The notes beneath the pieces were generated by a model. The model searched no databases. It was not told where the DNA came from and saw only the letters and a program-made list of their open reading frames with translations. A stretch of 64,000 nt of DNA from Escherichia phage WPEC3. The stretch lies in sequence record PV611058. One strand, given 5' to 3'. This document shows, one piece after another, positions 50,723 to 59,614 of this stretch. The number at the start of each line of letters is the position of its first letter. Position 1 is the stretch's first letter. Position numbers and translations under genes: made by a program.

Positions 50723-51028
50723 TTATAAAAATGTTAAATCTTCAGTACTTAATTGTAATAATTTACCATCATATTCAATTTCAACATATACATTTTGGTC
50801 ATAAACAGCAACTACACGACTAATAACTCCACTCTTCACCACATTCTTTTTGTAGTTGAATTCAACTGAGCAACCAATAAGTTTCTTTGATAGAATCTCA
50901 CGTATTTGATTAGCATGGTCTTTTAGGATAGAATTAATAGATTTTTTCACAACATATCTATCATTTAAGTATTTTTTAACTACATCATGCATATTATTAC
51001 CTTTTGAAGCGGTTAAATGAGTACTCAT
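50723..51028 (-). CDS. hypothetical small protein (dispersed ~100 aa family candidate)
   Basis: 101 aa; G-x-x-V-x-x ... G-V-I ... Y-x-x-x-x-DG pattern shared with several other small ORFs. Confidence 0.45.
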   Translation of the reverse strand: MSTHLTASKGNNMHDVVKKYLNDRYVVKKSINSILKDHANQIREILSKKLIGCSVEFNYKKNVVKSGVISRVVAVYDQNVYVEIEYDGKLLQLSTEDLTFL

Positions 51029-51755
51029 CTTTTTCTTTACGTAAGTATCTCATCCCACCACTTTGGGGAGTTGCAAGAGTCAAATCGCCAGTTAAAAACT
51101 GACTATCAATCCAGATACGATTACCGTAGATGAGTGGGTCGGATACTGCGGTATGACCACTAAAGACGCAATGGATACCATCAAGTCTATGGACGTAATA
51201 TGTGTTATTTTTCTTGCAGTAGTCGAATGTATCACGTTCCCACAAGCACTTCTCAATTATATCAGCACTAAGTGATTTTGTCCCACTAACGAAACGTTCC
51301 CATGTTGTATATTCCAATGGAACACCAGCATGAACTAGTCCAATCTTCAATCCTCGGTGATTGATTTGGATAATCATAGGGAGATCCTTTAAGTACTGAC
51401 GGAAGAACTGTATACCTGTCTCACCAACTTCATCAAGAAATTTATCACCACCATTACTTTGCCAGCAATGATACCAATCCCTCATTGTTTCGGAGTCCAC
51501 ACACATCATCTCGTGGTTCCCAGCAATCATAAAACGGTTTTCACCGAAAAGGAATTCAAACAGTAGTTTGGAATTCTGGTCACCACGGTCAATAACATCA
51601 CCTACACAAAAAACATAGTCATTATTGGTGATACCAAATTCTTTCTTGGTAGCATCCCACAGTTTTCCGTTGCCGTGTAAATCACCAACGATATATAAAT
51701 CTTTATCATCCGGTACTGTAACTTCCAAAAAATGTTTCATTATTGTTCCAACCAT
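50997..51755 (-). CDS. PPP-family Ser/Thr protein phosphatase
   Basis: 252 aa; GDLHG ... GDVIDRG ... GNHE motifs. Confidence 0.75.
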   Translation of the reverse strand: MVGTIMKHFLEVTVPDDKDLYIVGDLHGNGKLWDATKKEFGITNNDYVFCVGDVIDRGDQNSKLLFEFLFGENRFMIAGNHEMMCVDSETMRDWYHCWQSNGGDKFLDEVGETGIQFFRQYLKDLPMIIQINHRGLKIGLVHAGVPLEYTTWERFVSGTKSLSADIIEKCLWERDTFDYCKKNNTYYVHRLDGIHCVFSGHTAVSDPLIYGNRIWIDSQFLTGDLTLATPQSGGMRYLRKEKDEYSFNRFKR

Positions 51756-52069
51756 ATAATGTTAGTGTGTTTTGTAACTTGTGTTCCTGCAAAAGAACCA
51801 TCTTTAAGATACGTATTAACTTTGAAACGCCATTCACCACCGCTAATATACATATCAGCGATAATGTACTTCCCATAACCCCTTGAGTTTATCAAACGTA
51901 CTTCTTGTCCAATATACTTCGGCTTCAAATCATTAATAAAATCATCAGCCAAAGACATAAGATATCGCAAATGTGAATAGTCGGTGTTGAACATTATTTC
52001 TTTCTCTTGAAGTGGGATATAATATCTTTTGTTATTGAGATAAAAAGATACACCATAGTTACAGGCCAA
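51740..52069 (-). CDS. hypothetical small protein (dispersed family candidate)
   Basis: 109 aa ORF. Confidence 0.45.
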   Translation of the reverse strand: MACNYGVSFYLNNKRYYIPLQEKEIMFNTDYSHLRYLMSLADDFINDLKPKYIGQEVRLINSRGYGKYIIADMYISGGEWRFKVNTYLKDGSFAGTQVTKHTNIIWLEQ

Positions 52070-52209
52070 ATTATAGCCATTAGTGCTGCTGATTGTAGAC
52101 TCATTGCAGTTATGATTTCATCTTTGAAACATTTCCAATTCAGTACTAGAAAGTTACATATAAATGAGCAAAACGCAACAAATCCATATATTGCAAAAAA
52201 TGTAGTCAT
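51994..52209 (-). CDS. small membrane protein
   Basis: 71 aa; two hydrophobic helices; overlaps neighbour, so start uncertain. Confidence 0.35.
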   Translation of the reverse strand: MTTFFAIYGFVAFCSFICNFLVLNWKCFKDEIITAMSLQSAALMAIIWPVTMVYLFISITKDIISHFKRKK

Positions 52210-52544
52210 TATTCTTCCTCATCAACAAGAATAAGATATTCTAAACTTATTTCATCCCCGAAAGCTGCGGCATCAATTGCATCGTAATTGATGTATTCCA
52301 CCTGTGCAACTAAACGTATACCGAATTTGAGAATTTCAATAATTCTCATTCTTGTATTGGGATTTATGCACTGGTAGTATGATTCATAATCTGGATCATC
52401 ATCCAGTTCCGCATATCGGTTGATGTGCTCGTCGGTATATTTTACTATCTTACCGACGAGTTCTTTTTCTGCACTTTTATAGAAATCATCTTTCATTTGA
52501 TGCAACGCGATCAAGTACTGATTATATTGTGCAAGATGTTTCAT
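52209..52544 (-). CDS. hypothetical protein
   Basis: 111 aa ORF. Confidence 0.5.
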   Translation of the reverse strand: MKHLAQYNQYLIALHQMKDDFYKSAEKELVGKIVKYTDEHINRYAELDDDPDYESYYQCINPNTRMRIIEILKFGIRLVAQVEYINYDAIDAAAFGDEISLEYLILVDEEE

Positions 52545-52546
52545 TG

Positions 52547-53143
52547 TTAATCACAGCTACCTGAACTAGAACTTGAGCTTGAATCACAGCTAGAGCTATC
52601 ATATGAACCAGTATCAGCAGAAGAGATATATGGTGTTACGAATGCTGCTGCGGTGGCTGCTGTAATAATATGGGAAGTATGGTCGTGTGTACCTTGTTGT
52701 GGTTCATCTTGGACTTTGTTTTTATTCTTCCCTTTAGTATAGCGAGCTTTCTTTGTAGTTTTGGTGTTCTTTGGTGCTTTAGTACTTTTCGGTGCTGCTT
52801 TAGGCTTTACTTCATTGACGACAGGAACAACAGTAACATTAACTTTTGGATCAGTTTCATCAAGTGCATTGTGAACATTCACTTGCATTTGAACTTCAAC
52901 TTTAAGTTCTTCTTGTTCTTCAGGAATAACTTTTTCAGGTTCTGGTGTAACCTGATCACGTTTATCATTAATCATGAAGTTGATATTACGTTCACCTAGC
53001 ACTAATAAAGTAACGATGGTGAGTACTGGGGTTAGTACTAGACTAAGTAGTACATAGCCGATAACACTACGATTGTAATTGTATGCAAGCATACCTGCAA
53101 TAACTACACCAAGTACACTAATAACTGCTGCGATTGTTAACAT
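52547..53143 (-). CDS. membrane protein with Lys-rich and Ser/Cys-rich tail
   Basis: 198 aa; two N-terminal TM helices, K/P/T-rich linker, C-terminal SSCDSSSSSSSGSCD. Confidence 0.5.
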   Translation of the reverse strand: MLTIAAVISVLGVVIAGMLAYNYNRSVIGYVLLSLVLTPVLTIVTLLVLGERNINFMINDKRDQVTPEPEKVIPEEQEELKVEVQMQVNVHNALDETDPKVNVTVVPVVNEVKPKAAPKSTKAPKNTKTTKKARYTKGKNKNKVQDEPQQGTHDHTSHIITAATAAAFVTPYISSADTGSYDSSSCDSSSSSSSGSCD

Positions 53144-53447
53144 ATTCTACTCCTTTGTATATAAATTTACCAATATCTTCGATGTATAAACAGATTCCAC
53201 CTCGATCATTTAACACAAGCCAATCACCAAAACCACAACTGATGTTGCATATATTAAATTCTTCAATACCATCCGGTGAATACGCAATGAATGGACATAT
53301 TTCATCTGATATACCATTTACATAGTTATTACATATTAAATCAAATGTATGTGAACTATAAGAATTATCAGTACTGAAAATGTGCATTAATGAACTAGAT
53401 AGAATTACTATTGTTTTTTCCCACATTTTTAAAAAATCGTTATTCAC
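53118..53447 (-). CDS. hypothetical protein
   Basis: 109 aa ORF. Confidence 0.45.
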   Translation of the reverse strand: MNNDFLKMWEKTIVILSSSLMHIFSTDNSYSSHTFDLICNNYVNGISDEICPFIAYSPDGIEEFNICNISCGFGDWLVLNDRGGICLYIEDIGKFIYKGVEYVNNRSSY

Positions 53448-53504
53448 AACAACTACTCCATGTCAGTGTTGTAATGAAATTATATCACCGAATCAAGATA
53501 TGTC

Positions 53505-58293: not shown

Positions 58294-58294
58294 A

Positions 58295-58984
58295 TTATTT
58301 CCACCAAGTTGTATCACGACCACCAGACAAAGATTCATTGTACTGATGCCTGAAATTAGTATTTGGATTATTTGTCATTGTACTAATAAAATCAAATTTA
58401 ACATTCTCTTGAATGTAATTAATAACATTATCTTTAAATTTAATAGTACTGAAATCTAAATCCAAATGTTCATACAATACAGGATGGCAAAACTCATGTG
58501 TACGCAATGATGGCATGGTATCCTTAATGTATTGCACCGTGTTAATCATTGCATTGTACTCAGGCATAGCACGCATCATCATTAGCTGAAAGTGTTCTTC
58601 CTCTGACATTGACTCATCCAAATCAATAACGACTTCATCATTTTTAGAGTCATATACTTTAATGGAACTCTTTGTTGGATCAAGCATAGCCCACTCTGGA
58701 TACAGGCATGTTTTCCAAAAAGGATTATTGCACTGAAACATACTAATGAGATTTTGATTTTTATCAAAAATAGCAAATCCAAGATCCGAACTTGGCTGTA
58801 CTTCACATACACAAATATCATAAGGCGAGTCTTCAGTACTGAATGAACCAACCACATTTGATATATGTGAATATGGAGTTTCTCTTGATTTTAATTCAAA
58901 GGCTCTCTCCATACGATTAACCTGTGGTTGTAATGTAATTACACCCCTCAGTACATATAAAATTCTATCTAAATCTTTAATCAA
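58295..58984 (-). CDS. hypothetical protein with HExxH motif (possible zinc metallopeptidase)
   Basis: 229 aa; single HEFCH motif; no further support. Confidence 0.4.
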   Translation of the reverse strand: MIKDLDRILYVLRGVITLQPQVNRMERAFELKSRETPYSHISNVVGSFSTEDSPYDICVCEVQPSSDLGFAIFDKNQNLISMFQCNNPFWKTCLYPEWAMLDPTKSSIKVYDSKNDEVVIDLDESMSEEEHFQLMMMRAMPEYNAMINTVQYIKDTMPSLRTHEFCHPVLYEHLDLDFSTIKFKDNVINYIQENVKFDFISTMTNNPNTNFRHQYNESLSGGRDTTWWK

Positions 58985-58988
58985 AATT

Positions 58989-59288
58989 CTATCCTCTTAG
59001 TTTAATAGTACTGGCTGGATAATCTACCATAGTACTATCTGGTAATCCTATACAGTAATAAGGAAAATATCCCATCATATTAATACCAATTAACATTCCT
59101 GTTTTATATGAAGTATTAATTTCATAGTGGTCGTCTATATCAACCGCCAGTCCATATAAGGATATGTTACAATCCTTGATGTATCGTTCAAAGATTTTAT
59201 ACATTGATGGGTATACAGTTCCATTGGATTCTCTCACTACATCAGCCAACAACTTTATAGTACTGTTAATTAAATCTATACTAATCAT
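58989..59288 (-). CDS. hypothetical protein
   Basis: 99 aa ORF. Confidence 0.5.
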   Translation of the reverse strand: MISIDLINSTIKLLADVVRESNGTVYPSMYKIFERYIKDCNISLYGLAVDIDDHYEINTSYKTGMLIGINMMGYFPYYCIGLPDSTMVDYPASTIKLRG

Positions 59289-59300
59289 CTTTGTACCTGC

Positions 59301-59326
59301 GAAAAAAGACCAGCAAACGCTGGCCT
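59301..59326 (-). terminator. rho-independent terminator-like hairpin
   Basis: stem ccagc/gctgg with T6 on minus strand. Confidence 0.4.
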
Positions 59327-59332
59327 AAAAAT

Positions 59333-59614
59333 TTAAATTATTTCATATAGACAATATACACCATCAACGCCATCACAAGGAAAATCAACATAGAAATTCA
59401 CACTAACAGTATCATAATCAATCTCAGTGATGCGTCCGGTTTTACCTACACTCTTCACGAATAGGTCAGAGCCAAGATATACAAACTCAAACTCATCTGC
59501 ATACTCTTTTATAATATCAGCAAAATCACAACCATATCTGGGATCAGTATTAATAATCTCAAGATATAATGTAATGTATTGTTCGTATGACCATGTGTGT
59601 AGGTAAAAATCCAT
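59333..59614 (-). CDS. hypothetical small protein
   Basis: 93 aa ORF. Confidence 0.5.
   Translation of the reverse strand: MDFYLHTWSYEQYITLYLEIINTDPRYGCDFADIIKEYADEFEFVYLGSDLFVKSVGKTGRITEIDYDTVSVNFYVDFPCDGVDGVYCLYEII

Follow-up and report, generated by a model that had tools for sequence, protein, structure and literature searches.

The subject of this work is a group of small genes in a 64,000-nucleotide stretch of DNA from Escherichia phage WPEC3 (sequence record PV611058), which is hereafter called the window. Its region 50000-60000 shows 98.7% nucleotide identity to Escherichia phages WPEC5, Ecwhy_1, and fEgEco12 and ~89% to PBECO4, and therefore, by sequence comparison, the window is a piece of an Asteriusvirus (PBECO4/121Q-like) jumbo myovirus, a coliphage with a genome of 350-380 kb. 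The GC content of the window is ~0.35, its GC skew is negative throughout, and virtually all the long open reading frames (ORFs) are on the minus strand. An earlier reading of this DNA, made by eye from the letters alone and here called the original prediction, had listed seven small ORFs (50723-51028, 51740-52069, 53811-54107, 54399-54653, 54650-54910, 56072-56401, and 58030-58293) as a possible dispersed family, and all the seven are indeed present at these coordinates on the minus strand. Judging from the profile comparisons given below, these small ORFs and a number of their neighbours are very likely to form one paralogous family, and all the members in the window lie in a stretch of 12.3 kb, 50723-62994.

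Each ORF is called by its lower coordinate. On sequence criteria we regard 14 ORFs as firm members, 53811 and 61142 as probable, 60411 as possible, and 58989 and 54104 as doubtful ones. Subgroup B denotes the type of the listed ORFs (51740/54650/56072) and subgroup A the 61591 type. E-values without further label come from an iterative search with profile hidden Markov models (HMMs), and percentages are hhalign probabilities.

50723-51028, minus strand: member, subgroup B; likely start 50992; E 4.5e-4, and 4.4e-12 in a further family-profile search
51740-52069, minus strand: member, subgroup B, the search seed; likely start 51994 (84 amino acids, aa)
52209-52544, minus strand: member, subgroup B, with an acidic insert, unlisted in the original prediction; E 2.4e-18
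53811-54107, minus strand: probable member with weaker support; E 3.9e-4, entering late (round 12)
54104-54463, minus strand: doubtful member; ortholog of phage ph0011 included by the search; ~2%
54399-54653, minus strand: member, subgroup B; E 5.2e-6
54650-54910, minus strand: member, subgroup B; 4-nt overlap with the next gene; E 6.8e-5 at round 0
56072-56401, minus strand: member, subgroup B, immediately upstream of the polynucleotide kinase gene; likely start 56383; E 4.3e-9
58030-58338, minus strand: member, subgroup B; start ambiguous between 58293 and 58338; its stop overlaps the start of RNA ligase 1 (Rnl1) by 4 nt; E 3.1e-18
58989-59288, minus strand: doubtful member; PBECO4 ortholog included, window copy at E 0.025 and <2%
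59333-59614, minus strand: member, subgroup B, very acidic (isoelectric point, pI, 4.05); E 3e-4
60411-60713, minus strand: possible additional member; 22% to subgroup A over 78 columns, outside HMM inclusion
60855-61145, minus strand: member close to subgroup A; E 2.6e-6, and 0.001 with the HMM of the 61591 cluster; 18% to subgroup A
61142-61528, minus strand: probable additional member of 128 aa; ~25% to both subgroups; PBECO4 and A4 orthologs included
61591-61875, minus strand: member, subgroup A, the modelled protein; BLASTP E 3e-7 to 61838
61838-62149, minus strand: member, subgroup A, tandem array; BLASTP E 3e-7 to 5e-5 to 61591, 62725, and 62160; matches phrog_21004
62160-62471, minus strand: member, subgroup A, tandem array; BLASTP E 5e-5 to 61838; E 9.8e-5
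62468-62728, minus strand: member, subgroup A, tandem array, overlapping each neighbour by 4 nt; E 6e-6 with an HMM seeded by four sequences, E 9.1e-12 in the iterative search
62725-62994, minus strand: member, subgroup A, first gene of the tandem array; BLASTP E 2.5e-6 to 61591; first subgroup A match of the subgroup B profile (E 1.2e-5)

From PHROG and ortholog alignments, the starts 50992, 51994, and 56383 are preferred over 51028, 52069, and 56401. The PHROG alignment of the 50723 ORF begins at residue 13, and the 84-aa form of the 51740 protein is among the representatives returned by a large profile search (P0032). Between many members and the adjoining genes, stop and start overlap by 4 nt.

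Do these small ORFs really share a common origin? Taken in pairs, the seven listed ORFs give a modest signal. Their 21 pairs were aligned by the Smith-Waterman method against 300 shuffles, along with 190 control pairs of other small ORFs in the window. Two of the 21 exceed z 3, namely 51740/54650 (z 7.3) and 54399/56072 (z 4.1), and the mean z of the listed pairs is 1.32 versus 0.07 for the control pairs and 0.07 for the listed-versus-control pairs (Mann-Whitney p ~1e-4). In BLASTP within the window, 61591, 61838, 62160, and 62725 make an unmistakable paralog cluster (E 3e-7 to 5e-5), and 51740/54650 is the only significant pair among the listed ORFs (E 7e-4). The original prediction was to be given up if no pair scored above the shuffled-sequence background; since two pairs do so, it holds on this point. 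The pairwise evidence alone for a family is, still, thin. One may therefore ask if the likeness, in phage ORFs that are short and AT-rich, has arisen just by chance or from composition without any family behind it, as 19 of the 21 listed pairs stay inside the shuffle background and no Pfam family is matched. The shift of the mean pairwise z (p 1e-4) already speaks against such an explanation, and the profile comparisons speak against it much more strongly.

For these comparisons, 551 coding-strand ORFs were pooled from the window and from the syntenic regions of Klebsiella phage RCIP0023 (RaK2-like) and phages A4, JNE01, ph0011, and PBECO4. The original prediction had proposed an all-against-all profile comparison of the small ORFs, and this was carried out by hhalign with 36 ortholog-group profiles (630 comparisons), in which groups of small ORFs situated at 32-46 kb in the same genome served as controls. 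Nearly all the top scores fall between candidate groups: 51740/54650 (87%), 51740/56072 (79%), 50723/56072 (68%), and 61142/61591 (57%), followed by 53811/61591 (51%), 60855/61591 (38%), and 54399/60855 (38%). Candidate pairs reach 22-87%, versus at most ~10% for pairs with control groups. An iterative hmmbuild/hmmsearch procedure was also seeded with five 51740 orthologs and run with an inclusion E-value of 1e-3 on the 551 ORFs, to which 1102 decoys, either reversed or shuffled, had been added. After 15 rounds it had gathered 93 proteins of 80-162 aa from the six genomes and none of the 1102 decoys, the first of which stood at E 0.022. All the seven listed ORFs were recovered together with eight more from the window (52209, 59333, 60855, 61591, 61838, 62160, 62468, and 62725), which makes 15 confident copies beside two to four probable or doubtful ones, and orthologs of 58989, 61142, and 54104 from other genomes were included as well. 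For several members, strong E-values appeared after their nearest relatives had entered the profile (56072, 4e-9; 52209, 2e-18; 58030, 3e-18). When the complete, unannotated genome of the relative TH47 (352,450 bp) was scanned (602 ORFs and 1204 decoys), the family HMM matched 14 ORFs at E <1e-5, all of them in 33979-46445, or ~12.5 kb, and none in the rest of the genome; the first decoy came at E 0.018.

Shuffled and reversed decoys of identical composition never entered the profile, small ORFs of the same genome stayed at or below ~10%, and the matches of a whole genome are confined to one block. By these hhalign controls, the decoy-free HMM search, the reversed profiles described below, and the TH47 scan, the chance or compositional explanation is ruled out for practical purposes, and we give it next to no probability. 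What the original prediction called a family of ~85-110-aa proteins is therefore borne out by profile alignment with decoy and control tests, and its fear that the impression would not survive formal alignment did not come true. Its word "dispersed" is right in the sense that the members are interspersed with other genes, but they are restricted to one block of ~12.5 kb. Its list was recovered in all the seven entries but was too short: the family reaches past 59614 to 62994, and the clearest paralogs, those in 61591-62994, were left out.

It might also be possible that two or more unrelated families, the tandem array of the 61591 type and the 51740/54650/56072 type, have converged on a helix followed by hydrophobic strands and were over-merged by profile drift. 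The link between the subgroups takes eight rounds of iteration to appear, the remote-homology clustering of PHROGs separates the groups, and a search of 1.84 billion representative proteins gave mostly the 61591-type subfamily and close orthologs of the other members. To compare the subgroups directly, disjoint pooled profiles were made from 45 sequences for subgroup B and 27 for subgroup A. They align in register over 66 columns, which cover the last helix, the Y-x-G-K-x-V motif, and all the strands, with a probability of 48.7% (P 1.8e-4), a value that can be cited for separate families as just 48.7% and that is to be set beside 0.2% for reversed profiles and 0.87% for the best control group against subgroup B. 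This register and the exclusion of every decoy for 15 rounds speak against convergence with drift. In addition, the subgroup B profile finds proteins of subgroup A (E 1.2e-5 and 1.4e-6), some members, namely 61142, 60855, and the Klebsiella copies, form a bridge by matching both subgroups, and one genomic block is common to all the members. We consider separate families unlikely, and hold to a single paralogous family. Three points should be counted against the single family: the 19 listed pairs inside the shuffle background, the link between A and B, which is moderate rather than overwhelming, and 53811, which scores <2% in hhalign to both pooled profiles.

What is conserved among these proteins? 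In column statistics from the 93-sequence family alignment, a column of Y/L/F that is 99% hydrophobic precedes a glycine (60/90, 67%), which is followed by K (39/90, 43%), any residue, and V/I (98% hydrophobic). A central motif consists of G (30/61, 49%), x, I/V (100% hydrophobic), x, x, and V/I (100%), after which come Y/F-[ND]-G-x-[LI]-x-[VIL]-x-[YF]-x-x-D and, last, hydrophobic-x-hydrophobic-x-x-[IL]. The early G-K/x-x-V pattern and the central G-x-I/V-hydrophobic stretch that had been noticed by eye are both reproduced here. The C-terminal Y/V-x-hydrophobic-x-x-DG element corresponds roughly, not exactly, to the third motif with its D/G turn. The well-conserved columns are all hydrophobic or glycine, and there is no conserved polar residue among them. 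Most members are acidic, with a median pI of 5.5.

Structures were predicted by AlphaFold2 for 61591, with a 42-sequence subfamily alignment, and for 54650, with 15 window paralogs. The 61591 model (predicted local distance difference test, pLDDT, 91.2; predicted template modelling score, pTM, 0.81) has helices at 5-22 and 28-44, strands at 48-51, 54-64, 67-74, and 80-84, and a short helix at 85-88, that is, a two-helix hairpin and a four-stranded, strongly bent sheet. In Foldseek comparison with the PDB, the matches cover the beta half of this model and are dominated by SH3-like small barrels, including the N-domain of eIF5A/EF-P, HEX-1, the Tudor domains of PcrA and 53BP1, the MRG15 chromo domain, RimM, and the WYL domains of PafBC/BrxR. 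Among these, the PcrA/UvrD Tudor (5dma), the KOW-like domains of eIF5A/EF-P (1iz6 and 1ueb), the MRG15 chromo domain (2f5k), RimM (3a1p), and WYL superpose on ~42-57 C-terminal residues of the model. The likeness to SH3-like barrels lies in bent sheets of four to five strands (target-normalised template modelling score, TM-score, up to 0.65; root-mean-square deviation 2.3-4.2 Å), and the difference in an identity of 7-22%, E-values of at least 0.18, and the N-terminal helical hairpin of the family, which has no counterpart there. An Sm/Hfq-like fold, with its helix and bent strands, was tried and rejected: hhalign to Escherichia coli Hfq gives 0.2%, Pfam gives no LSM or Hfq match, and no Sm/Hfq chain is found in the best 50 Foldseek matches.

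In the BFVD, the 61591 model finds family members of 121Q (E 1.6e-11), slurp01, UB, and RaK2, and next the small phage barrels DUF1653 and DUF4222 (E ~0.04). The last two are phage proteins of ~60-105 aa whose modelled barrel aligns to the beta half of the family (E ~0.035, TM-score to target 0.48-0.64). They differ in that the 114 family sequences give no Pfam match to them, and most are shorter and without alignment to the helical hairpin. To our knowledge, no expansion of DUF1653 or DUF4222 proteins into arrays has been reported.

From these models, it is likely that the helices and the SH3-like fold are common to the whole family. For the listed ORFs this is supposed because of their in-register profile homology to the 61591 type and the matching order of secondary structures: the weak model of 54650 has a helix at 8-26 and then three strands, which by the hhalign register is the same helix-strand order as in 61591. 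There are reasons for reserve. The 54650 model is of low confidence (pLDDT 58), and its matches in the BFVD are meaningless; the confident model is limited to subgroup A; and Foldseek with the 61591 model against the PDB gave no significant match, the best E being 0.18. Accordingly, of the small beta-barrel-like domain suspected in the original prediction, the fold class is supported for subgroup A, with its confident model and SH3-like neighbours at E-values of at least 0.18, and would extend to the listed ORFs through the profile link, the structure prediction that it had called for having given a confident SH3-like sheet for 61591 and a poor model for 54650.

Known sequence families do not account for these proteins. 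Pfam searches with single proteins and with the 114 family sequences gave no recurrent family; KOW was matched by 3/114 members with a best E of 0.081, and Tudor and SH3 by none. A PDB sequence search with two family profiles gave nothing below E 0.3. The members match their own PHROGs strongly (E 1e-31 to 1e-58), namely 38615, 37322, 36496, 33398, 29519, 31355, 28139, 21004, and 32291, all of which are labelled "unknown function", and only phrog_21004 and phrog_32291 cross-match each other. Individual ortholog groups are therefore already catalogued, and what appears to be new here, on profile and model evidence, is the union of separate PHROGs into one family and the assignment of a fold. 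Our literature searches found no description of the family, nor any transcriptome or knock-out data for Asteriusvirus, and by term searches the CBB paper and a comparative review of jumbo phages do not describe it either.

Small-ORF paralog expansions are common in jumbo phages. The family resembles such expansions, for example the zinc ribbons of phage G, in that a small domain is multiplied within one lineage, and differs from the latter in fold. The zinc ribbons of Bacillus phage G, ~35 copies, are treated as a lineage-specific expansion in a jumbo phage by Iyer et al. The RaK2 genome paper (PMC3622015) puts ~10% of RaK2 proteins down as paralogues, and by term searches the present family is not described in these papers. 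Two further small tandem sets in the window are unrelated to the family, one at 19436-19945, 19942-20463, and 20470-21036 (E 9e-14 to 2e-3) and the other at 5844-6266 and 6253-6666 (E 2e-6). The window also has two large paralogous proteins of 909 aa (21107-23836) and 898 aa (24453-27149; E 2e-35), and a 195-aa ORF (23853-24440) between them is similar to the C-terminal parts of both (E 1e-20 and 6e-16).

How widely is the family distributed? The six genomes carry 12-19 members each, all between the Ser/Thr phosphatase gene and the cytidylyltransferase/Dam genes. When 1.84 billion representative proteins were searched by profile, 22 matches were obtained at E <=1e-3, nearly all of ~65-100 aa and resembling window members, of which two (P0031 and P0038) were rejected as unrelated repeat proteins. 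Among 5.8 billion proteins, three word-indexed searches found 16-21 matches each, all from close phage relatives; at this database size the broad family profile is too weak. Xanthomonas phage XbC2 (Mimasvirus; Rnl1 58% identical) has a syntenic block too, and no member is detectable there (E >0.2), except for two weak matches of the subgroup A profile (E 0.012-0.017) to longer annotated enzyme genes. From the 22 matches among the 1.84 billion representatives, the family seems therefore to be narrow, being found in Asteriusvirus and RaK2-like phages.

Within these phages the members hold their positions across genera. The identity between paralogs of one genome is at most ~32%, and the duplications are therefore old and the copies have been retained. 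Against PBECO4, the ratio of nonsynonymous to synonymous divergence (dN/dS, Nei-Gojobori) is 0.03-0.74, being <1 wherever dS can be estimated, with a median of 0.22 versus 0.09 for the neighbours. Against Asteriusvirus A4, which is more distant, family orthologs mostly share 29-57% of their residues, compared with 89% for the kinase, 90% for DNA ligase, and 82% for Rnl1, and the family has a median dN of 0.52 versus 0.13 for its neighbours. The member proteins thus diverge ~2-4 times faster than neighbouring genes, and by these sequence measures they are real, constrained, fast-evolving genes under purifying but relaxed selection. As a separate observation, synonymous divergence in 44000-64000 from PBECO4 and A4 varies >40-fold between adjacent genes (against PBECO4, dS is 0.035 for 61838 and 1.57 for 62725), and this region is therefore regarded as a recombination mosaic.

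The genes around and between the members, all non-family, are as follows.

47446-48864: DNA ligase, a context gene; annotation from relatives
50075-50494: PTH2-type peptidyl-tRNA hydrolase; Pfam match (E 1.2e-4) that narrowly misses the gathering cut-off
50485-50712: 75-aa protein adjoining the PTH2 gene, with two CxxC pairs that resemble a DnaJ-type zinc finger; relatives annotate a chaperone
50997-51755, minus strand: Ser/Thr metallophosphatase at the downstream edge of the family block; annotation from relatives
51994-52209: hydrophobic 71-aa ORF inside the block
52547-53143: 198-aa protein inside the block, in which a membrane segment at the N-terminus is followed by a middle part rich in lysine and a tail rich in Ser/Cys/Asp; weak DUF7206 match (E 1.2e-3)
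55136-56068, minus strand: polynucleotide 5'-kinase/3'-phosphatase (PseT type); annotation from relatives and tblastn
56891-58033, minus strand: RNA ligase 1 (Rnl1, RnlA type); annotation from relatives and tblastn

The order Rnl1, kinase, and DNA ligase in 47446-58033 equals that of rnlA, pseT, and gene 30 in the T4-type phage RB68, and in RB68 the gaps between these enzymes are likewise occupied by small ORFs. As a whole, the region is collinear with the T4-type series rnlA, pseT, cd, 31, and 30. This conserved macro-synteny therefore ties the jumbo phage to T4, in spite of no detectable homology of the small ORFs. The small ORFs of the "hyperplastic" T4 early region (pseT.1-3, cd.1-5, 30.1-30.9, 31.1, and 31.2) have a similar size and the same niche, between rnlA, pseT, cd, and DNA ligase, and gp31.1 of a T4-type region is annotated as an "SH3 beta-barrel fold-containing protein". 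Unlike the family studied here, they are not a single paralogous family. Homology to them was tried and rejected: three family HMMs against the RB68-region ORFs gave a best E of 0.034 (74 sequences), and hhalign to the RB68 gp31.1 homolog gave 0.1%.

As for transcription signals, the coding strand of the region has 11 terminator-like sites versus 4.7 expected. Strong hairpins of this type lie at 63011-63035, just upstream of the five-gene tandem array, at 59307-59326, after the gene 59333-59614, and at 55106-55132, directly after the kinase stop codon and inside the mechanical ORF 54910-55155, in place of which relatives have a shorter 58-aa gene. In a scan for sigma-70 promoters, sites were no commoner than in shuffles (70 versus 78.5). 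Far from the family, 38313-38699 and 38855-39156 consist of exact tandem duplications with units of 77-155 bp, 99-100% identical, and homopolymer runs of C x70, G x76, C x76, and G x156 come after them (region 38313-39764), where relatives carry a gene for a Sir2-type deacetylase. A bin with GC 0.49 and near-identical short ORFs at 38172-40376 are thereby explained. The duplications and runs of 38313-39764 look like an assembly or sequencing artefact rather than biology.

What, then, could so many small proteins do? As a whole, the observations are probably best explained by a lineage-specific family of small early accessory proteins that bind rather than catalyse, with helices and an SH3-like sheet. 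One or two N-terminal helices would pack on a small, strongly bent SH3-like beta-sheet, and the paralogs would be non-catalytic binding modules having a common scaffold and a different surface each. They may be produced early in infection, and their targets may be host or phage proteins, with host takeover or anti-defence as the outcome. Binding is favoured over catalysis because there is no conserved polar residue and the pI is mostly acidic. The early binding module is suggested by conservation limited to hydrophobic residues and glycine, by the acidic pI, and by the T4-like early-region context. The small ORFs of the T4 early region are mostly non-essential early genes. The role as a whole, in binding, host takeover, or anti-defence, is put forward tentatively, as a possibility below even. 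It is to be noted, as a point on the other side, that acidity is compatible with nucleic-acid-related roles too.

The main functional rival is a part in RNA repair. The members might be accessory or specificity subunits, possibly RNA-binding in the manner of Tudor, KOW, or Sm barrels, for their RNA-repair neighbours Rnl1, polynucleotide kinase, and PTH2. In all six genomes, including that of the Klebsiella phage, one member runs 4 nt into the start of Rnl1, being thus translationally coupled to it, and 0-12 nt separate the end of a second member from the kinase gene; the gene for PTH2 is nearby; and the beta half resembles barrels of translation- or RNA-associated proteins (eIF5A/EF-P, RimM, and Tudor). 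Adjacency is, however, not independent evidence because the whole block is syntenic, and just two of at least 15 members touch these enzymes. Moreover, most members are acidic, and conservation does not extend to any basic or aromatic surface motif. Nor are they related in sequence to Hfq, and in Pfam there was no match to LSM or Hfq and none of significance to KOW. We know of no need of T4 Rnl1 and PseT for partners of this kind. We judge RNA-repair partnership as a rather unlikely role for the family. The members might also be minor virion or decoration proteins, since SH3-like barrels are present in many structural phage proteins. The block, however, corresponds to the early/nucleotide-metabolism region of T4-type phages, and the RefSeq annotation of PBECO4 calls no gene of the block structural, though it does so for nearby genes. 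A virion role appears very improbable.

Early binding proteins thus remain the favoured explanation. It can be extended, as a speculation to which we give a low probability, to a diversified set of partner proteins with an architecture not seen before, a helical hairpin plus an SH3-like barrel, in which the tRNA-repair enzymes of the phage would be retargeted or regulated by the two members that always accompany Rnl1 and the kinase, and the other paralogs would neutralise different host defence or RNA-cleaving effectors. If this were true, the family would be a modular counter-defence arsenal.

On the present analysis, ~15-19 "hypothetical proteins" per genome, which databases divide among about ten orphan groups without relation to each other, would come together into a single family having one predicted scaffold. 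The phages having this family are widely isolated jumbo coliphages, candidates for therapy, and Klebsiella phages. Small early proteins that are multi-copy, fast-evolving, and positionally conserved show the usual signature of host-takeover or anti-defence factors, and the family therefore may offer a compact, testable set of candidates for such factors.

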